The notes under the pieces: generated by a model
The model's database searches: none
Seen by the model: the letters and a program-made list of their open reading frames with translations, nothing else
What the model was told of the DNA's origin: nothing
Position numbers and translations under genes: made by a program
Sequence record: OQ589852.1
DNA: 45,270 nucleotides
From: Escherichia phage Ioannina
Direction: 5' to 3' (one strand)
Shown: positions 7,918 to 34,578 of the stretch, piece after piece
How the letters are laid out: each line of letters opens with the position of its first letter
How positions within the stretch are numbered: position 1 is the stretch's first letter

Positions 7918-8418
7918 ATGTATGGCGACCCACAAACATTTGTAGATTATGCCAACGCGCGAGGCGTAGAAGTCACATTGGGAGATGCAACGCAGCACTT
8001 GACCGTCGTTAACGACTTCCTGAACGGCCTCGACTGGATCGGCGACCCTGCGGACCATCTCGGCGTCGATGCGTGGCCTCGTATGAATTTCACCTCCGAC
8101 GGTAAGCCAATCCGCGAAACGGACACGCTTGACATCACCACTATTCCGAAAGGCCAGCAAGTCGAGTTTTCTGCAATTCCCGTTGCCGTTGAGCAGGCGG
8201 TTTATCGACTTGCCTTGCTGGTGGCGGACGGCATTGATATTTCACCCATCGGCGGTGGTAAAGAAACAATCCGCGAAACGGTTGGCCCGATTACGATGGA
8301 ATATGACCCGTCTACCTTTGGCGGTTATGTTTCGTTCCCGTGGTGGGATGGTATGCTGAGCTACTGGTTGAACACCGAAGGCAACGCAGCCGGTAACTTT
8401 GACGTATACAGAGGTTGA
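7918..8418 (+). CDS. head-tail connector / head completion protein (putative)
   Basis: 166 aa; position between capsid and tail genes; AGGAG RBS. Confidence 0.4.
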   Translation: MYGDPQTFVDYANARGVEVTLGDATQHLTVVNDFLNGLDWIGDPADHLGVDAWPRMNFTSDGKPIRETDTLDITTIPKGQQVEFSAIPVAVEQAVYRLALLVADGIDISPIGGGKETIRETVGPITMEYDPSTFGGYVSFPWWDGMLSYWLNTEGNAAGNFDVYRG

Positions 8419-8420
8419 TT

Positions 8421-8882
8421 ATGAATCCTGCAATCATCGTAGCGATGCTGGCGGCGTTGGCTACTAAAGAAGACGAGCCAGAAGTAGAACAACCGGAGGC
8501 CGGAACAACCAGAAGGAGGCGAAAGAGGATGGCGGGCTTTGACTATCGGGCGTTGAAACGGAAAGTTAATCCGTTGATTAATAAATTTGGCATGAAGGTG
8601 ATGGCATCACGTCCAGGCGGCGTGGTGCGCGTGGGCGGCGAGGAAGTGGTGACGCCGCCGTTATCGTTTGAAATCGTCGGCCTGCGTGAAGAATACAAGC
8701 CGCATGAGATAGACGGAACGCGTGTCCTTTCCGGGGACGTTAAATTTTTATGCCAGGCTACCGAGCAGTTGCAGGTTGGTGACACGGTTAATCTGAATAA
8801 CATCGACTACCGCGTGGTGAATCCTAACCCCCTGCAACCGGCAGCTACAACAATGCTGTTCCAGTTACAGCTAAGGGGCTAA
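8421..8882 (+). CDS. head-tail joining protein (putative)
   Basis: About 153 aa from MNPAII with GAGG RBS; call by position only. Confidence 0.35.
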   Translation: MNPAIIVAMLAALATKEDEPEVEQPEAGTTRRRRKRMAGFDYRALKRKVNPLINKFGMKVMASRPGGVVRVGGEEVVTPPLSFEIVGLREEYKPHEIDGTRVLSGDVKFLCQATEQLQVGDTVNLNNIDYRVVNPNPLQPAATTMLFQLQLRG

Positions 8883-14511: not shown

Positions 14512-15111
14512 ATGGCACAAGGTACAATCACAGTGACGAATGGTAGTAAGACCGTCACAGGCGCGGGCACAGCGTTTTTAAGCGCATTGGGTAAGGTATT
14601 CGTGCTGGCCACCATCGACGGCAACGACTACATTGCTAAAATCGCGTCATTCAACTCTAACACTTCAATCACACTGGTGGACAATTGGCCCGGACCGACT
14701 AAATCCGGCGCTGCATACGACTTGATTGAGGCGCACGACCAGCGGGCTAATGAGTGGCCCTACTATTGGCATATGCAATTGCAAGGCGGTGGCGACGTGC
14801 AGTTATCATTCCGCACCGAAGAATTGCAATTTGGCAACGGGTACGGGCAGAACATCTCAGATGGGCCGAACGCCGAGACGAAACAATTCCCGATCCAGTT
14901 TGTAGGCTTGACTAACGACAAGTGGAATAACCCTAAGCTGGTCTATAACTTCCTGCGCGCGCATTTTGTAAAGCCGTTTATTGTCACCGCGCCGGATGGG
15001 GAGAAGGGGCTTTACGTTGTAGAGCGGTCGAGCTTGTCGTACACTGACAACGGACACTATACGGCAACCGTATCAGCGACACTTAAAACAGCAATTGGAT
15101 TCGTGCAATGA
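14512..15111 (+). CDS. minor tail protein (gpM position) with fiber-like N-terminal module
   Basis: 199 aa, first gene after tape measure; N-terminus MAQGTITVTNGSKTVTGAGTAF closely resembles the N-terminus of the tail fiber at 21992. Confidence 0.55.
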   Translation: MAQGTITVTNGSKTVTGAGTAFLSALGKVFVLATIDGNDYIAKIASFNSNTSITLVDNWPGPTKSGAAYDLIEAHDQRANEWPYYWHMQLQGGGDVQLSFRTEELQFGNGYGQNISDGPNAETKQFPIQFVGLTNDKWNNPKLVYNFLRAHFVKPFIVTAPDGEKGLYVVERSSLSYTDNGHYTATVSATLKTAIGFVQ

Positions 15112-21991: not shown

Positions 21992-24016
21992 ATGGCAGCG
22001 GGTACACTTAACGTAACAAACAACAGCAAGGCCGTAACGGGGTCGGGCACGACGTTTACGTCATTGAAAGCGGGCGACTTTTTATCGCTGGTGGTGGGGC
22101 AAGTCCCGTACACCGTCGCGATTGAGTCAATCCAGAGCAACACGGCGCTTACGCTGGCGCTGCCGTTTGACGGCCCAACGTCTACCGGTCTGGCGTGGGA
22201 CTCCGTATCCCGCGATACGATGTCGCTGGCGACTATGGGTGTGACCGTACAGGCGCAGAAAGCGCTACGCATGTTGATTGCTGACGAAAGCAACTGGCGA
22301 GCAATCTTCGGCGACGCAGAGCAAATCAGCGTGACACTGCCAAACGGCACGGTTATGCAGGGTATGTCGTGGGGCTATTTGTCCAGCCTTCTAAAAGACG
22401 TCGATCCGGTTGAGCTTCAGAATATTGCCAACCAGGCGGTTAACGCTAAAAACCAGGCTGTAACGGCGAAGAACGACGCCGTGTCTGCTAAGAACGATGC
22501 GCAGACTGCGAAGACTGCCGCAGAAACAGCGCGCACACAGGCCCAGTCGGCTAAGACCGCCGCAGAGTCAGCACGTGACGACGCGCAGACGGCTAAGACT
22601 GCCGCAGAAACAGCACGCACCCAGGCACAGACCGCGAAGACCGCCGCAGAAACCGCCCAGGGTGCGGCGGAAGACGCCCGCGATGAGGCGAAGCAATATG
22701 CAGAGCAAGCCGGAGCACCATATAAGCAGGTATTACAACCGCTACCAGACGTGTGGGTTCCGTTTAACGATTCGCTGGATATGCTCGCAGGCTTCGCGCC
22801 AGGATACAAGACGGTTACGGTAGCCGACGACGAGGTTATTATGCCTAGCGACAAGGTGGTGTCGTTCAAGCGCGCATCAACGGCAACATATATTAACAAG
22901 TCCGGCGAGTTTAAAATCGCAGATATTGACGAGCCGCGGTTCGAGAAATACGGCCTGCTTATCGAAGGCCAGCGCACTAACCACATCACCAACGGGGGCG
23001 CTCCGGCTGCCTGGGGCCGCAGCACATCGGTTGGAGTGGTTACGGGTACAGATGATTTCGGTTTCTTGTATGGAAAGTTTGGTATCGGCCAGGGCGACGT
23101 GGGCAGTACGACTGCGCGTAACCTGGCTTCCGTAACATCAGTAAACAGTCTGGATACTTCCGGCGACGATAAGTATGTAACGGCGTCATGCCGCTTTCGG
23201 TCCGACAAGGATGTACGTCTTCGTGTGCGTTTTGCAGAAGGCGCGGATCAAGGCAGCATAGCTTTCTCTGGCGACGCGTACATTAAATTAAGCGATTTGT
23301 CCGTGTCTAAGACGGGTGTCGCGGCAGACCGCATTACCGTAGAAGTAGAGAAAGACGAAGCCACCGGATGGAATCGTGCGGTGGTAATGCTGCAAGCTAC
23401 CACGGCGCTGGTGAACGCGCAGATCCAGATCTCGCCAGTGAGCAGTTATGCTGCCGGTGATTATATCGAACTGGCAACTCCGCAGGTTGAGTTAGGGATC
23501 GGGGCGTCTTCATATATAATCTCCGGAACATCTCCAACCACACGCGCCAGCGATATGGTGACGGTACCGGCTAACCGCAACCTGTATAACCTGCCGTTTA
23601 CGGTGCTTGTAGAAGCGCACAAGAACTGGTCTAAGGCGCCGAACGCAGCGCCGCGTGTATTCGACACCGGCGGTAATCAATCGGGTGCGGCTATTATCCT
23701 TGGATTCGGGTCTGGCGCTATTGACGGGTATCCGTACTGCAACATCGGCAGTGCTAACGGACGTGTGAGTGAAAACGCAGGGCTTAAGCATATGGTTATG
23801 GGTATGCGTGTGAAAGAAAACCAGAACACTTGCGCGGTGAGTAACGGCACTCTTTCGACCGAATCTAAAACCACATGGACCTACCTGCAAGGGTCTGCAA
23901 CGCTGCGAATCGGCGGGCAGACCACGAACGGAGACAGACACCTGTTCGGGCACGTCCGTAACTTCCGTATCTGGCATAAAGCACTGACCGACTTACAAAT
24001 GGGAGAATTAGTATGA
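21992..24016 (+). CDS. tail fiber protein
   Basis: 674 aa; fiber-type N-terminal module, Ala/Lys/Thr/Gln coiled-coil repeats (AKTAAETARTQAQ x4-5), beta-rich C-terminal domain. Confidence 0.75.
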   Translation: MAAGTLNVTNNSKAVTGSGTTFTSLKAGDFLSLVVGQVPYTVAIESIQSNTALTLALPFDGPTSTGLAWDSVSRDTMSLATMGVTVQAQKALRMLIADESNWRAIFGDAEQISVTLPNGTVMQGMSWGYLSSLLKDVDPVELQNIANQAVNAKNQAVTAKNDAVSAKNDAQTAKTAAETARTQAQSAKTAAESARDDAQTAKTAAETARTQAQTAKTAAETAQGAAEDARDEAKQYAEQAGAPYKQVLQPLPDVWVPFNDSLDMLAGFAPGYKTVTVADDEVIMPSDKVVSFKRASTATYINKSGEFKIADIDEPRFEKYGLLIEGQRTNHITNGGAPAAWGRSTSVGVVTGTDDFGFLYGKFGIGQGDVGSTTARNLASVTSVNSLDTSGDDKYVTASCRFRSDKDVRLRVRFAEGADQGSIAFSGDAYIKLSDLSVSKTGVAADRITVEVEKDEATGWNRAVVMLQATTALVNAQIQISPVSSYAAGDYIELATPQVELGIGASSYIISGTSPTTRASDMVTVPANRNLYNLPFTVLVEAHKNWSKAPNAAPRVFDTGGNQSGAAIILGFGSGAIDGYPYCNIGSANGRVSENAGLKHMVMGMRVKENQNTCAVSNGTLSTESKTTWTYLQGSATLRIGGQTTNGDRHLFGHVRNFRIWHKALTDLQMGELV

Positions 24017-24270
24017 AAGACTTAACGCTGAAGTTTGAAAACAAGGCCGCTTTTGCGGCCTTCAAAGCGCAGTTAAACTGGGACGAGAACGAAACGTTGC
24101 AAGATGATATTCTGCTTGATGTCATCGGCAACATGTATGATGGTGATGAGGATAATCTCGTTGCCGTTGAGGGCTACTTCGTTAACGTGCGCATTCTTGA
24201 CGACGACCACGGCATTAACTTTGAGCAGTATGCCGTTGTGTTAGACTCACCACTTCGTCAATGGGCTTAA
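24013..24270 (+). CDS. hypothetical acidic protein (possible fiber assembly factor)
   Basis: 85 aa, start overlaps the fiber stop (ATGA); no motif. Confidence 0.35.
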   Translation: MKDLTLKFENKAAFAAFKAQLNWDENETLQDDILLDVIGNMYDGDEDNLVAVEGYFVNVRILDDDHGINFEQYAVVLDSPLRQWA

Positions 24271-24340
24271 GAGGGTAAATCATGGTTACTAAAACAAACA
24301 TCCCAGCGGATATACGGCGCTGAAAAATTCTACTTCATCA

Positions 24341-25084
24341 TTGTCGTCTGACAAGATGGATAAGTCAGCCAATTTGTCGGACCTGGCAGACAAAACTGAG
24401 GCGCGAAGTCATCTTGGTTTAGGGTCAGCAGCCACGTTGGACGTAGGGGATAGCAGCGGAAACGCGATGAAGGTTGGTGATTTTGGATTGGGGCGACCTA
24501 ACGGCGCTAAGGTTTTCTATACTACCTCGCAAGACACGCTACTTGCTGGACTGGACCAATACGGTTTATGTGTGTTCAGGAACGACCTGCAGATCGCTGC
24601 GCCGTGGGATATATGGAACTATTCATCAAACCTGTTCTTCCGCGCCGGAGATACTTACAGTATGCTAAGCATACCGTTTGAGGCGGCTGGTAAGGTGAAG
24701 GTTTTCGGCGGTGCCGCGGGTTACGGGTGGAAGACAGGGCGAACACTGCTCGATAACACAACGACGACTATTGACACTAACGGATTTGTCAAGCAAGCAT
24801 CGCCGATTGTTAAAGTATTTGGTGATGGTAAATTTGAGGTTAATGAAGAGTCGAAAGGGGCTAGTGTAGATCGCATATCCGTCGGCGTTTATCGTATCTC
24901 TGGTGTTCTCGGTCTTAACTCAGATGCGGCCTGGGGTGGCGTAGGCGGTGGCTTCGAGATTCCGGTAGACATCAACAAGCAGCCGCGGGTGTGGGTTGAC
25001 TTCGAGGTTGAGCCTGAAGGGTCTATCATTCTTAAAACGTACCACCGGACACACGACACGGCTCCGTCTTTTGCAAAAACATAA
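24341..25084 (+). CDS. tail fiber-like protein (second fiber or receptor-binding module)
   Basis: N-terminal NLSDLADKTEARSHLGLGSAA motif is common in phage fiber proteins; Gly-rich beta C-terminus; start uncertain (TTG at 24341 or ATG near 24356). Confidence 0.5.
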   Translation: MSSDKMDKSANLSDLADKTEARSHLGLGSAATLDVGDSSGNAMKVGDFGLGRPNGAKVFYTTSQDTLLAGLDQYGLCVFRNDLQIAAPWDIWNYSSNLFFRAGDTYSMLSIPFEAAGKVKVFGGAAGYGWKTGRTLLDNTTTTIDTNGFVKQASPIVKVFGDGKFEVNEESKGASVDRISVGVYRISGVLGLNSDAAWGGVGGGFEIPVDINKQPRVWVDFEVEPEGSIILKTYHRTHDTAPSFAKT

Positions 25085-25166
25085 TTGACGGCGTTAATGA
25101 CGGCGATCCGGTAGATATTCCATCAGACGCTTTTATCTCAGTTCGCGTTAACATGCCGTAAGTGGA

Positions 25167-25190
25167 AAGGGGCCAAACGGCCCCTTTTTC
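25167..25190. terminator. bidirectional rho-independent terminator (AAGGGGCC-loop-GGCCCCTTT)
   Basis: Separates the plus-strand late module from the minus-strand early module. Confidence 0.7.
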
Positions 25191-25764
25191 ATTGTGCGGA
25201 TTCCCAGTCTATCTTTCGGCGTATTGTAGGACTTTCGAAATACTCTTTGCCGTCTACTTCAACCAAAGGCCAGTCGTTCACAATGGCGTATGGATCTGCG
25301 ACCTCTTCGATTATGCCGGTGGCTTTATGCTGACCAAACTCTACCAGCACCAGAATCACCCCGGCAACGTGACGCTCCATATACTCGTATGCGCAACGTG
25401 CTTCAACCAGACCGCGACGGATGCCGGTAGTGGCCTTCACTTCGTACGACCAGACGGCATCAATAACCTGGTCTTTGTAATCCGGCCCTACTTTCACTTT
25501 GCGCTTACCCAGCATTACCACATCGCCACGGTTCATGGTGTTGCCGCTAAATAATCCGGTGCGCTGGAGTAAGCCTTGCGGGATGCAACTGCGACCGCCG
25601 GTTTGCCCTTCCAGATACATCCCTGCGAACATCTCGCCCAGTACACCAACGAGACGGCTTTGCTTGCACGCGTCGGAACGGTTACGCCAGTAGTCAAACT
25701 CAATGCTTGCAATCAACGATGCCAGATGAAATGCTTTGCCAGATAATTCATATTCACCGTACAT
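25189..25764 (-). CDS. putative PD-(D/E)xK-type nuclease
   Basis: 191 aa; GPDYKDQVIDAVWSYEVK fits a PD…(D/E)xK signature; last gene of the leftward early operon. Weak call. Confidence 0.3.
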   Translation of the reverse strand: MYGEYELSGKAFHLASLIASIEFDYWRNRSDACKQSRLVGVLGEMFAGMYLEGQTGGRSCIPQGLLQRTGLFSGNTMNRGDVVMLGKRKVKVGPDYKDQVIDAVWSYEVKATTGIRRGLVEARCAYEYMERHVAGVILVLVEFGQHKATGIIEEVADPYAIVNDWPLVEVDGKEYFESPTIRRKIDWESAQ

Positions 25765-26321: not shown

Positions 26322-26356
26322 GTTAATATAGTGCAACCAACCTATTGGTTGCAAGT
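26322..26356 (-). promoter_or_regulatory. early-type promoter containing perfect palindrome TGCAACCAA-N4-TTGGTTGCA
   Basis: Minus strand reads TTGCAA-N18-TATATT; the palindrome looks like a dimer operator. Confidence 0.55.
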
Positions 26357-27034
26357 AAATTTTGCAACGTTTATTGCGTAAATTTTCGGGACTAAATCGC
26401 TGCACGCCCGACGAATTGCCGCGATGTTCTTCGGGCAGTCCTCGATGATGACCAGTTCCGACACATCCGCATAGCAAACCATTTGGAACACGGCGCACGC
26501 CTTAAACTCTGGCGGCGGGGTGTCGTCCAGCATGTGGCGCATAAACAACCGGCCTACCGGGAAGACCTCCAATTGCTTGGCGGTGGTATCCCAACATTCT
26601 CGCTGCCGGTTGGTCAGATACGCTATCTCGAAGCCTTGCTCTTTGTACATGCGCAGCAGCGGCAGCATATCCATGTTAAGGTCTTCGCGTACGTGTGCTT
26701 TGTGCCACTTCGCCCAAAAGGTTGATTTGGTTTTTATGCCGGGCACCAGGTCAGCACGCGCATCACTTGAACCATTAATAACGCCATCCAGATCACAAAT
26801 CAGTAGTTTCATTTTTAAGCTCTCAATAAGGGTGTAGCGGGCGCTTCGCGCAGTAACGGAGTTGCATACAAAATGGCAACGCTTGGTTATGACAAGCCAG
26901 CCGGTGAGGTCCAGGCCCAGGATGTATTCCGGGCGGCTGGCGCGCATCACTCGGTCGCGGCGCGGGTCGATGTTATAGTCTCTTTGCATTTGGTCTACTA
27001 CCGCGGGGTCGCGGTCAACGATTAAGATATTCAT
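26342..27034 (-). CDS. HAD-superfamily phosphatase-like protein with N-terminal extension
   Basis: Internal MKLLICDLDGVINGS matches HAD motif I (DxDG); N-terminal 75 aa unassigned and may be a separate small ORF. Confidence 0.45.
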   Translation of the reverse strand: MNILIVDRDPAVVDQMQRDYNIDPRRDRVMRASRPEYILGLDLTGWLVITKRCHFVCNSVTARSARYTLIESLKMKLLICDLDGVINGSSDARADLVPGIKTKSTFWAKWHKAHVREDLNMDMLPLLRMYKEQGFEIAYLTNRQRECWDTTAKQLEVFPVGRLFMRHMLDDTPPPEFKACAVFQMVCYADVSELVIIEDCPKNIAAIRRACSDLVPKIYAINVAKFTCNQ

Positions 27035-27954: not shown

Positions 27955-27997
27955 GTTGTCTCCAGGTATTAAAAAGGGCGTTCCCTTCAGAACACCC

Positions 27998-28357: not shown

Positions 28358-29070
28358 TTTAAATTTTCCTCATTGACTGCAATTGCGAAGCCGCGCGGTG
28401 TGAGCGACCTGATTAATTTAGTGCGGGCGGACTTACCACCGAGCAGACTATACTGTTTGGAGTAACCTTTTTCAACAAATACCGGCTTCTTCTCCGGCAT
28501 CCTGAAGCCGTTCCCCGTCCATAAGCAAGTCAGCTTCGGATATGAATCACGCGCGTTGATATATTCCGGGAATAGCGGGTGCACATCATCTTCCGGCAGG
28601 TAGCCGCCACACTCCCACGGGTTAAACGAGTGATCTGGCTTGCGCCACTGGGTGGATAGCACACTGCGCGGATTCTCTATCATATATGGCACTTCGAAGA
28701 AGTCACCGAGAAAGGCCGCTATCTTAGCGGTGCGCACTGCCTTAATCTGGAATGCTGGGTCTTTAGCGCGTTTGCGCGGGAAAGCTGGCGCGCCGCTAAC
28801 TGCCAGGTCGGTGCATGGCGGAAAGGCGTAAATAATATCGGGTGTGCCAAACTCGCCCGCCATAGCGCGGTCTACGAAGTCCAGATCGATAAACACGTTC
28901 TTATAGCGAATGCCGCGCCCATAAAGCCGGTAGTGGTTGTAGGAGCCGTGGTCGGCCCCGTCAAAGTTAAAGCAGGTGCACTTATGCCCCATCTCGGCAG
29001 CACGCTCGATCATAAGGCCGCTGCCGTCGAATAATGACCAGATGTTTAGTATCCTAACTCGCTTATTCAC
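28354..29070 (-). CDS. DNA cytosine-C5 methyltransferase-like protein (short, atypical)
   Basis: LFDGSG (motif I-like), FPPCTDLAVSG (PC catalytic motif-like), IENP (ENV-like); only 238 aa, so the target-recognition region is reduced or absent. Confidence 0.45.
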   Translation of the reverse strand: MNKRVRILNIWSLFDGSGLMIERAAEMGHKCTCFNFDGADHGSYNHYRLYGRGIRYKNVFIDLDFVDRAMAGEFGTPDIIYAFPPCTDLAVSGAPAFPRKRAKDPAFQIKAVRTAKIAAFLGDFFEVPYMIENPRSVLSTQWRKPDHSFNPWECGGYLPEDDVHPLFPEYINARDSYPKLTCLWTGNGFRMPEKKPVFVEKGYSKQYSLLGGKSARTKLIRSLTPRGFAIAVNEENLK

Positions 29071-30713
29071 TTGCGGCCTCGCTTCTTCTCTTTCATATAT
29101 TCCATCAGTTCATCCTGGATGTCGCGCTTACCATCACGGCGGCTTGCCACTAACTCGTCGAGCGTGCCGCGGGCCTGGATAATGTAGACGAATACCGGGC
29201 GCGGGTGTCCGGCCTGCATCTGGCGCACCGGTCCGATACGTTCGACGATCTGCGCGAAGTGCTCAAAGTTCCACGTATCCGAGAAGATAGCGAGGTGGTG
29301 TCCGCCGTCCTGTAAGTTAAGACCGTGGCCTGCCGATGCCGGGTGTGCAAACATGATCGGAATCTCGCCCCGGTTCCACGCTTCCATATCCTTAACGCCT
29401 TGCTTGCCCTTACCCATTGCGACACCCTGCGGGAATTTCTTCTTAAGGCGGGCTAGGTCGTGCTTGTACTGGTAGGCCACAAGCAGCGGTGCGCCGTTAA
29501 GTTCTTCTACGATACTTTCCAGGGCGTCAAGTTTGGCGTCGTGGATTTTCTCCCACTCGTCGGTCCGCTCGCCGTCGTCGTCAACCTTATACACAGCGCC
29601 AGATGCAAGCTGGAGGCATTTAATCGTCTTAGAGGCAGCGTTGGCGGCCTCCACTGTTCCGCTTTCCAGTTCGGCAAATAGCTCGCTCTCGAACTGGTCG
29701 TAAATCTTGCGGGCTTTCTTCGGCAGGTCAACCAGCACCGGCGTGTAAATCGGCTTGTCACACCCGAAGTATTCAGCCGCGTCAACCGTTAGCGAAATAT
29801 CAGCCAGCTTTGCGTGAATCTCTTTTTCGGAGTTTTTCAGCGGGGAGTGCTGCATAGTGAAGCTGCCAGGCGCAACCGGCTTACTTATGAACCAGCGGTC
29901 GGTGAATGCTTTATAGCTACTGCCGAGGCGTTCGCCACCGTCAACAAACCAGTTCTGCCCCCACACATCCTTAAGCCCGTTGGGTGCTGGCGTACCGGTC
30001 AGGTTAATCCAGCGCTTGACGTGCTTATGTGCGATCGCCGCCAGTGCGCGAGCACGTTTACTGCCCTGCTTACTGCGGTAGCCTTTCAGCTTAGTGGACT
30101 CATCGGCAACAACGACCGTAAAAGGCCACTCCTCGCCGCAATAGTTCACAAGCCACTCAACCACATCATAGTTGATGCACACGACGTTCGCGCCGCTCTC
30201 AAGCGCTGTAATGCGGTCCTTCTCCGGTCCGGTGCCGTCTACTACCTGAAGCGATGAGAATCCCCATTTATCTTGTTCCGGGGGCCACGTACCGGACGCA
30301 ACGCGCAACGGGGCCAGCACCAGCACGCGGTCTTCTCCGTGGTTCAGGATGCCGGTCTGGAACATCTTGTTCAGCGCCCACATGGTAGCGCCAGTCTTTC
30401 CCGATCCCATCGTCGCCCAGATATTACAGCGGGCGTGTTTAATGATGAAAGACGTGATTAACTTTTGGTACTCGCGCCTGCGAAAACGTGCCATCTTGTT
30501 ACGCCTTTTCCAGACTTCTGTTTCATGGTGCCAATTCCTCGTCGTAGCGGTCCAGTTAAATTCGTGCCCCACATGCACGCCGGTCGCCCGGAAGCCTTTA
30601 AACTTCTGCCAGCACACAGTTAACGGCAGCGGCTCGCGCATTGCGGCGATATACCATACGCGATCGCCGGGTTTGCAGTCGCCAAGTGTGGTAAGGCGGT
30701 AATGTTCTTTCAT
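29067..30713 (-). CDS. SNF2-like ATP-dependent helicase
   Basis: Walker A MGSGKTG, DEST box (VVADESTKLK), LTGTPAPNGL motif III; start taken at MKEHYRL after GGAGA RBS. Confidence 0.8.
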   Translation of the reverse strand: MKEHYRLTTLGDCKPGDRVWYIAAMREPLPLTVCWQKFKGFRATGVHVGHEFNWTATTRNWHHETEVWKRRNKMARFRRREYQKLITSFIIKHARCNIWATMGSGKTGATMWALNKMFQTGILNHGEDRVLVLAPLRVASGTWPPEQDKWGFSSLQVVDGTGPEKDRITALESGANVVCINYDVVEWLVNYCGEEWPFTVVVADESTKLKGYRSKQGSKRARALAAIAHKHVKRWINLTGTPAPNGLKDVWGQNWFVDGGERLGSSYKAFTDRWFISKPVAPGSFTMQHSPLKNSEKEIHAKLADISLTVDAAEYFGCDKPIYTPVLVDLPKKARKIYDQFESELFAELESGTVEAANAASKTIKCLQLASGAVYKVDDDGERTDEWEKIHDAKLDALESIVEELNGAPLLVAYQYKHDLARLKKKFPQGVAMGKGKQGVKDMEAWNRGEIPIMFAHPASAGHGLNLQDGGHHLAIFSDTWNFEHFAQIVERIGPVRQMQAGHPRPVFVYIIQARGTLDELVASRRDGKRDIQDELMEYMKEKKRGRK

Positions 30714-30721
30714 CGTCATGT

Positions 30722-33537: not shown

Positions 33538-33664
33538 TTCACCCTTACCACGGCCTCGGCGTTCTGTTTCACTTCGGCAACCGTGAAGTATTCGCCCAGG
33601 AATTTGGACCACACGCGCATTCCCGGTTTCACATCTTTAGCTTTAATTCTCATTACATTGTCCT

Positions 33665-33690
33665 ATGAAAAAGCCCGCATAAAGCGGGCT
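33665..33690 (-). terminator. minus-strand rho-independent terminator after the SSB gene
   Basis: AGCCCGC-TTTATG-CGGGCTT followed by TTTT on the minus strand, just after the frame-B stop. Confidence 0.6.
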
Positions 33691-33709
33691 TGAGTAGTGG
33701 GCTTTGCCC

Positions 33710-34482
33710 TTAGCGGCGTCGACGTTTACGTGGTGCTTCGTCTTCGTCATCATCGTCATCTTCATCGCGTGACTTGCGACGTTTACGCGGCTTATCGTCT
33801 TCATCGTCGTCATCTTCATCACGGCGGCGCTTAGACTTGCGCGGTTTTTCATCTTCATCATCGTCGTCACGACGTTTTGACTTTTTGGATTTACGCGGTG
33901 CTTCGTCTTCGTCATCATCCAGGTCGTCGTCAGAGCAATATGCACCGCGCCGCCACCGAAGGAATCCCCATCATCACGGAAGCGCATACCCAGCAGACCA
34001 CAGCCTAAGCCTTTGCCGTTGGTATTGTTCCAGGCCCAAATATCTAAGGAAACGTTGCAATAGCAACCGGAATAGATTTCCTTCCCTTCGATTTCGTCGC
34101 CGTCGATGGTCAGACCCTGCTCCGTCTGCTTCTCGCCTTCGGAAGTCTGGATGATCGGCTGTTTGAATGATTTAGCGTTGATATACAGCTTACCTTCAAA
34201 CTCTTCCGTTACTTCTTCACGCTCATCACCATCTCGAACGGCACATTCTTTCGAATCCTGCGCGTAGTGGCGGTCCATCCACTTATCGGCGTTCTTCTCA
34301 GACTTCAGTTTTTCGGTGAGCACTGCGCGTGCCGCCGCTTCCACTTTGTCCACCTGCGGATCTTCTTTATCAAGAATAATCACCGCACGATATGCCGGTT
34401 TTTGTCCATCCTGTTTAGGGGTATCACGCTCCCAAATTTTCAGGAAGCATACACGTACATTTTTCAGGTTGACTTTAGCCAT
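33710..34482 (-). CDS. ssDNA-binding protein with tandem acidic/basic C-terminal repeats; two halves in different frames
   Basis: N-terminal domain from MAKVNLKNVRVCF (GAGGA RBS) is open in one frame; the C-terminal tail (four DDDDEDE-PRK-KRR units) is open only in the -1 frame and ends at 33710 ahead of the terminator. Confidence 0.5.
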
Positions 34483-34578
34483 TTTCCAATTCCTCATTTC
34501 ACATGTATCGGGGTTATTAGAAGCCACCCCGTCCGGCTTGGTTGCTAATGTACTTGGTTGCGTTTCCGCGGTCAAGTG

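Follow-up and report, generated by a model that had tools for sequence, protein, structure and literature searches.

The second lateral tail-fiber gene of Escherichia phage Ioannina has no obvious beginning. In the 45,270-nucleotide stretch of DNA analysed here (sequence record OQ589852.1; hereafter, the window), the initial annotation, made from the sequence alone, noted a tiny ORF at about 24282-24323, in a frame unlike that of the fiber sequence downstream (NLSDL…LGLGSAA), whose first start codons are TTG 24341 and ATG 24356. The tiny ORF was suggested to be a remnant of an older N-terminus, a leader peptide, or a second frame disruption. Which of these codons starts the fiber gene, and why does the reading frame change between them?

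The start of the second fiber gene

The layout first noted is borne out by the sequence. On the + strand, a 13-codon ORF runs from ATG 24282 to the TGA at 24321-24323 and encodes MVTKTNIPADIRR followed by a stop. Its start lies 12 nt past the stop of an 85-aa ORF (24013-24270). The fiber body (KMDKSANLSDLADKTEARSHLGLGSAA) occupies another frame, which is open from 24293. By itself, a length of 13 codons is no better than chance. Two features make the ORF non-random: the Shine-Dalgarno (SD) sequence ahead of it, and the fact that in every relative the orthologous gene opens with the same 11 codons. Specifically, the SD sequence GAGGG (24271-24275, + strand) stands 6 nt (24276-24281) ahead of ATG 24282 and is identical in all relatives. 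The anti-SD duplex energy for the 20 nt upstream of this ATG is -6.5 kcal/mol, a strength that about 5-9% of the 20-nt windows of the Ioannina genome attain; the genome mean is -2.6 kcal/mol, and only about 9% of windows reach -6 kcal/mol or below. No SD sequence is present in the 20 nt before TTG 24341 or before ATG 24356 (+0.4 and +0.5 kcal/mol, respectively). The ribosome-binding site of the tiny ORF is the sole one among the three starts. A promoter and terminator scan of 23900-25400 found none on the + strand, with counts not above those of shuffled sequences, and thus gives no evidence of a separate transcription unit. A search of IMG/VR with the exact DNA pattern across the start-codon region returned no match.

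Ioannina is a Dhillonvirus. Megablast of 23900-25200 recovers three genomes named "Dhillonvirus LM40P1" (98.5-98.7%), phage KarlBarth (82%), and phage rolling, the last over the first third of the query only. These genomes were compared together with six metagenome contigs from ENA and Logan assemblies, retrieved via protein (n=11 relatives). All 11 carry TT at the 24313 site, and the single T of Ioannina is unique among the 12 sequences aligned. The aligned break site reads GCGGATATTACGGCG in the relatives versus GCGGATA-TACGGCG in Ioannina. The missing T puts a frame break at 24313-24314 (+ strand), between codons 11 and 12; the site reads GATATTACG in relatives and GATATACG in Ioannina. Because this one T is absent beside T24313, Ioannina displays a 13-codon ORF that soon meets a stop, with the fiber body in the other frame.

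In all 11 relatives, the ATG equivalent to 24282 opens the fiber ORF, which crosses the deletion site uninterrupted, and the protein begins MVTKTNIPADITALKNSTSSLSSDKMDKSANLSDL. Counted from that ATG, the ORF has 293 codons in the LM40P1 genomes and in the metagenome contigs. In rolling it is open to the end of the record, and in KarlBarth it stops after 98 codons, at KarlBarth's own frameshift. ATG 24356 corresponds to Met26, which is internal in all orthologs. In the protein database, 293-aa proteins beginning MVTKTNIPADITALKN fall into clusters of 28 and 6 near-identical member sequences from public assemblies. Among the cluster members listed are 26 entries of 293 aa from NCBI, Logan, and ENA assemblies; the remaining listed members are Ioannina's own 242-aa product and the two fragments of KarlBarth.

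These alignments indicate that translation of the second lateral tail-fiber gene genuinely starts with the tiny ORF, which contains codons 1-11 of that gene. Within 24282-24323, these codons (MVTKTNIPADI) constitute the authentic 5' end, and the closing RR and stop are out-of-frame sequence made by the deletion. Of the origins first suggested, a frame disruption describes the locus correctly, in that one base present in 11 of 11 relatives has been deleted. The remnant idea holds insofar as codons 1-11 belong to the authentic gene; "older" may overstate the case, as the disruption is probably a consensus error (see below). The leader peptide has no counterpart, as a separate small ORF exists in none of the 11 relatives. 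The prospect, also raised then, that orthologs might start at ATG 24356 with no upstream extension is reversed: their start is the upstream ATG equivalent to 24282.

A second break and the repaired protein

The repaired Ioannina frame ended at 267 aa, whereas the LM40P1 ORF encodes 293 aa, and this discrepancy led to a second deletion. It lies in an A5 run at 25075-25079 (+ strand) that is A6 in nine close relatives, and it is unique to Ioannina. The equivalent KarlBarth sequence is divergent, yet it too is one base longer. The change from A6 to A5 makes a stop at 25082-25084, and the last 27 residues are lost. Residues around the break read SFAKNIIDGVNDGDPVDIPSDAFISVR in the intact protein. 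The initial annotation had missed both the T absent beside T24313 and this second 1-nt deletion at the 3' end of the gene.

The gene consequently lies in three frames on the + strand, a condition that sets Ioannina apart from LM40P1, KarlBarth, rolling, and the 293-aa proteins P0001, P0002, and P0124: among these, Ioannina alone is without both the T at 24313 and the A at 25075-25079. After codons 1-11, the body of the gene (24314-25079) comprises codons 12-266 and the first base of codon 267; this second frame contains the ORF that begins at TTG 24341, as well as the bulk of the PF25670 domain. The deletion cuts through codon 267 (AAC in relatives), of which A25079 and C25080 are left. The 3' end (25079-25161) follows in a third frame, with codons 268-293 (IIDGVNDGDPVDIPSDAFISVRVNMP) intact from 25081 and the true stop at 25159-25161. 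In tblastn of the repaired protein against the LM40P1 genomes, residues 1-266 match in one piece. In Ioannina, tblastn with the KarlBarth proteins gives a match that splits at the 3' end, where 25069-25158 matches in another frame.

The coding sequence deposited in GenBank (WFD55448.1, 24356-25084, + strand) is annotated as a 242-aa "putative tail fiber protein" and is CDS28 of PMC11430396. It extends from the internal Met26 to the frameshift-made stop. The deposited product is without the first 25 and last 27 residues and ends …SFAKT, Thr replacing Asn267. The PF25670 (Phage_tail_C_2) profile matches the intact protein with E=5.7e-57 over positions 2-132 of 133, versus only positions 2-105 of 133 in the deposited product. 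When both missing bases are restored, the 293-aa protein is 100% identical to P0124, with 0 amino-acid differences. P0124 occurs on at least four independent metagenome contigs. Measured against P0124, the fiber gene exhibits no further decay, that is, no nonsense or missense excess, beyond the two deletions.

In the intact gene, ribosomes would load at the GAGGG SD sequence, start at ATG 24282, and read a single 293-codon ORF, as in relatives. The N-terminus of the protein would be the module MVTKTNIPADITALKN…KMDKSANLSDLAD, which, by analogy, may anchor the second fiber either on the virion or on the first fiber. The protein would end in the PF25670 tail-fiber C-terminal domain, part of which the deposited record loses via the missing A. 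The architecture, again judged by analogy, probably combines a conserved docking peptide at the N-terminus with a distal module that can be exchanged. A product begun at Met26 would lose the best-conserved stretch of the docking peptide and also the final fifth of the C-terminal domain.

Consensus error or mutation

Could the GenBank start nonetheless be right? In that case, translation would begin at ATG 24356 to give the 242-aa product, and the 13-codon ORF would be a chance ORF or a regulatory leader peptide (uORF). In the body frame, no ATG precedes the one at 24356, which is also the deposited start of WFD55448.1, and the small ORF possesses an SD sequence, as a translated leader would. 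We consider this account very improbable. There is no SD sequence at 24356 or 24341, and Met26 sits inside every ortholog. A leader is hard to reconcile with relatives that all read through from 24282 and possess no separate small ORF, and a chance ORF with the fact that its 11 residues show the highest conservation within an N-terminal module that several phage families have in common. More improbable still is programmed -1 ribosomal frameshifting at …GAT ATA CGG…, which would join the two frames and regenerate the ancestral protein. A -1 shift at ATA/A does formally yield MVTKTNIPADI-TALKN exactly, but the overlap (24293-24323) contains no slippery heptamer of the form X XXY YYZ, none of the 11 relatives has the two-frame arrangement, and the break at 25075-25079 would require another recoding event of a different kind.

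The remaining question is whether the two bases are missing from the phage or only from its record. The rest of the genome bears on this point. In a whole-genome alignment, Ioannina and the three LM40P1 genomes are 97.5% identical. Eight 1-nt indels are unique to Ioannina: +G 8498, +A 8522, -T 24313, -A 25075-79, -T 30505, -A 30725, -C 33947, and -T 42230. The indels were polarised by the outgroups KarlBarth and/or rolling, the 25074 site via the alignment of relatives at the fiber locus, and five of the eight sites were re-checked against the six metagenome contigs. Half of the unique indels (4/8) are undercalls of 5- or 6-base homopolymers, and the genome contains only 13 runs of at least 6 bases. 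Six of the eight fall in coding sequence, roughly as coding density predicts. The same alignment shows a 445-nt insertion in Ioannina at 26341 (26341-26786) and about 240 nt absent at 27964, in the methyltransferase/homing-endonuclease region.

Several of these indels alter genes in ways unseen in relatives. In the head-tail region, +G 8498 and +A 8522, 24 nt apart, fuse the homologs of bas17_0011 (an ORF of about 40 aa) and bas17_0012 (a 117-aa structural gene) into a 155-aa ORF (8415-8882). KarlBarth and rolling keep the two homologs as separate genes, an ORF structure that the unannotated LM40P1 genomes share. On the - strand, -T 30505 (T5 to T4) falls near the end of a 73-aa ORF and fuses it in frame to an SNF2-type helicase, giving 550 aa (ORF 29067-30719); in relatives, the 73-aa ORF and the helicase are two separate genes. 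The -C 33947 deletion, in a GGC/CCG repeat, shifts the frame of an SSB-like gene (33643-34575, - strand) and converts the conserved charged tail (DDDLDDDEDE…PRKRRRR) of its product, a member of the Enc34 ssDNA-binding family, into more than 100 out-of-frame residues. Two further deletions are apparently non-coding: -A 30725 (A6 to A5 on the + strand, a T-run on the - strand behind a hairpin) and -T 42230 (T6 to T5, also behind a hairpin). Both of these runs come after GC-rich, terminator-like hairpins, and these undercalls fall into one error class with the coding indels. A tblastn scan with all 65 KarlBarth proteins finds Ioannina-specific frame breaks only in the fiber and SSB-like genes; the same 65 queries reveal no frame breaks at these two sites in the LM40P1 genomes.

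Ion Torrent sequencing has a well-established homopolymer indel bias. Ioannina was sequenced on an Ion Torrent S5, with reads under BioProject PRJNA941078, and assembled with Trinity and then CAP3, with no polishing described (PMC11430396). We infer, with a probability of roughly three in four, that both deletions in the fiber gene are consensus errors of the Ion Torrent data and the Trinity/CAP3 assembly rather than mutations. This reading is favoured because the indels are unique, the repaired protein equals the natural allele P0124, six more such indels exist, and the platform is error-prone. Indels that scramble the SSB-like tail and fuse ORFs are expected of random error and are not of the kind that purifying selection tolerates. 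Uncorrected Ion Torrent data would yield this pattern, including in genes expected to matter, in a plaque-purified, broadly lytic phage. If the deletions are artefacts, Ioannina makes a normal 293-aa fiber. The break at the start of the fiber gene is thus most likely an annotation problem, not new biology. Exact look-ups of proteins specific to Ioannina (P0140 and P0142) gave records from NCBI only, not from Logan.

It is much less likely that both 1-nt deletions are genuine and very recent mutations and that the second fiber gene is a fresh pseudogene. Such a gene would yield at best a doubly truncated fragment, through weak SD-less initiation or through reinitiation past the 13-codon ORF, whose stop (24323) lies 18 nt before the TTG and 33 nt before the ATG. 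Both the conserved N-terminal module and the final fifth of the C-terminal domain would be missing from this fragment. KarlBarth lends this account some weight, as its independent frameshift in the orthologous gene implies that real inactivation of the second fiber gene occurs, and lateral tail fibers are dispensable on rough hosts without O-antigen (PMC8594841; PMC10713586). The change from TT to T, moreover, affects a 2-base run and is no classic long-homopolymer Ion Torrent error. Two hits in one gene fit as well, the second being neutral once the first inactivates. Yet two of eight random indels in one gene is not improbable, a rough estimate being about 0.5-0.8 same-gene pairs expected over all genes. 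We considered two indels per gene as a sign of pseudogenisation and judged it not significant, given eight indels over about 65 genes and another such pair at 8498/8522. Mutation also sits poorly with a fiber protein that is 100% identical to a natural allele, the two indels aside, and with a platform and assembler prone to exactly such changes. The six further unique 1-nt indels, with their wrecked SSB-like C-terminus and fused ORFs, are unlikely in a viable plaque-purified phage. In addition, Ioannina, whose isolation host was E. coli ATCC 25922, lysed E. coli isolates of a broad range of genogroups (PMC11430396). Should the frameshifts be real after all, Ioannina and KarlBarth might be two independent cases of a loss of the second fiber that recurs in Dhillonviruses as they are isolated or propagated and that may be adaptive, and a residual SD-less reinitiation product might exist. 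We regard that scenario as doubtful, somewhat more so than mutation itself.

The fiber cassette and known systems

The second fiber gene takes its place in a conserved cassette on the + strand. The first lateral tail-fiber gene (21992-24016, 674 aa) matches tail proteins of phrog_1419 and phrog_1980. The 85-aa ORF between the two fiber genes belongs to phrog_1361 and is a conserved cassette partner. The T5-like phage IrisVonRoten encodes counterparts of both proteins: its lateral tail fiber bas32_0022 is 51% identical to residues 130-674 of the first fiber, and its bas32_0023 is 48% identical to the 85-aa protein. The 85-aa ORF also has a counterpart at the equivalent position in Seuratvirus SA126VB. 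Over its N-terminal ~70 residues (21992-22207), the first fiber resembles the N-terminus of a minor tail protein (14512-14721) whose gene comes just after the tape measure, with 35-44% identity via KarlBarth bas17_0020 and bas17_0028.

The N-terminal ~41 residues of the second fiber are homologous, from residue 1 (the annotated start) onward, to the N-terminus encoded by the second lateral-fiber gene of a set of T5-like phages and of Seuratvirus/Nonagvirus phages. T5-like carriers include IrisVonRoten (bas32_0024), AKFV33 (orf135), FFH_1, SP15, and others; Seuratvirus/Nonagvirus carriers include SA126VB (SA126VB_24), BRET, and phiG7. In a four-way alignment of Ioannina, rolling, bas32_0024, and SA126VB_24, the invariant residues are M1, T3, T5, I7, P8, D10, I11, T12, L14, K28, N31, L32, L35, and D37. 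Conservation within the module is highest over the first 12 residues. Sequence comparison finds the three-gene cassette, which spans 21992-24360 in Ioannina (the C-terminal ~545 aa of fiber 1, the ~85-92-aa protein, and the fiber-2 N-terminal peptide), at 48-60% protein identity in Dhillonvirus, T5-like (Tequintavirus), and Seuratvirus phages, a distribution that points to horizontal exchange of a lateral-fiber module.

These relationships alter how the record should be read. PMC11430396 presents CDS28 as a unique gene of intergeneric origin, unique also among Dhillonvirus genomes. Homology searches show otherwise for CDS28 (24282-25161): dozens of metagenome sequences carry the gene, as do at least five GenBank Dhillonvirus genomes, and LM40P1 (three genomes), KarlBarth, and rolling have a gene with the same start at the same locus. 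The N-terminus missing from CDS28 is precisely the part conserved within Dhillonvirus and common to the T5-like and Seuratvirus cassettes; only the C-terminal part is Kuravirus-like. A correction is due both to the OQ589852 record and to the published interpretation of CDS28, while the biology itself is ordinary. Before OQ589852 is used in receptor-binding-protein prediction, host-range modelling, or phage engineering, the second fiber gene should be repaired; the record's ORFs for the SSB-like protein, upstream of the helicase, and in the head-tail region are also suspect.

Among the closest known systems, LM40P1, KarlBarth, and rolling share with Ioannina the locus order (fiber 1, 85-aa ORF, fiber 2), the SD sequence, and the ATG. 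KarlBarth differs in its own loss of a G in a GTGTGTG run (GTG to GT; MZ501088, 24494-24501), which splits the gene into bas17_0030 and bas17_0031; the intact 293-aa version of the KarlBarth allele is P0002, found in metagenome assemblies. In rolling (MN850575, 45185-46017), the second fiber gene is unannotated and has the same start and N-terminal ~30 residues, but the distal part diverges after about residue 30.

The T5-like (IrisVonRoten bas32_0022-0024; AKFV33 orf135 type) and Seuratvirus/Nonagvirus (SA126VB_22-24) cassettes likewise consist of a large fiber, an ~85-92-aa protein, and a second fiber ~10-12 nt on. There, MVTKTxIPxDITxLK…NLSDLAD aligns with the Ioannina protein from residue 1, whereas the remainder is unrelated and the protein is 574-586 aa long, versus 293 aa with PF25670 in Ioannina relatives. 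A two-subunit, LtfA/LtfB-style lateral fiber architecture has been described for phage DT57C (PMC4728585, PMC10713586), and the Ioannina cassette resembles it by synteny and by the parts homologous with the T5-like and Seuratvirus cassettes. Residues 1-26 of the second fiber have no match in DT57C LtfB, and the DT57C match covers only residues 27-60, within ltfA. The N-terminus of phiEco32 phi32_15 (gp15) is not similar to that of the second fiber (18% identical). Homology of the N-terminus to LtfB or to phiEco32 gp15, as suggested by PMC4728585, is unsupported for residues 1-26. Attachment of the second fiber to the first would then be an analogy with LtfB rather than demonstrated homology.

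The C-terminal part, with its PF25670 domain, resembles the Kuravirus long tail fiber proximal protein (SU10 gp12, PDB 7z47; phiEco32 gp14). Residues 36-293 of the second fiber align with residues 527-784 of SU10 gp12, to the C-terminal end, with E=3e-127 for the whole sequence and 1.9e-126 for that stretch. SU10 gp12 differs in having another N-terminal part, and the second fiber is far shorter. The cryo-EM model of SU10 gp12 (7z47) was built for residues 1-90 only (PMC9509320), so it provides no solved structure for the PF25670-type domain that the second fiber matches. By tblastn, the repaired protein is 72-74% identical to its Kuravirus counterparts. Finally, lambda PaPa stf is the model for genuine mutation: a single-base frameshift, reportedly described by Hendrix and Duda in 1992 and verified, with a phenotype, is said to split the side tail-fiber gene in a laboratory phage stock. 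The Ioannina indel differs from it in that it is probably absent from the phage itself.
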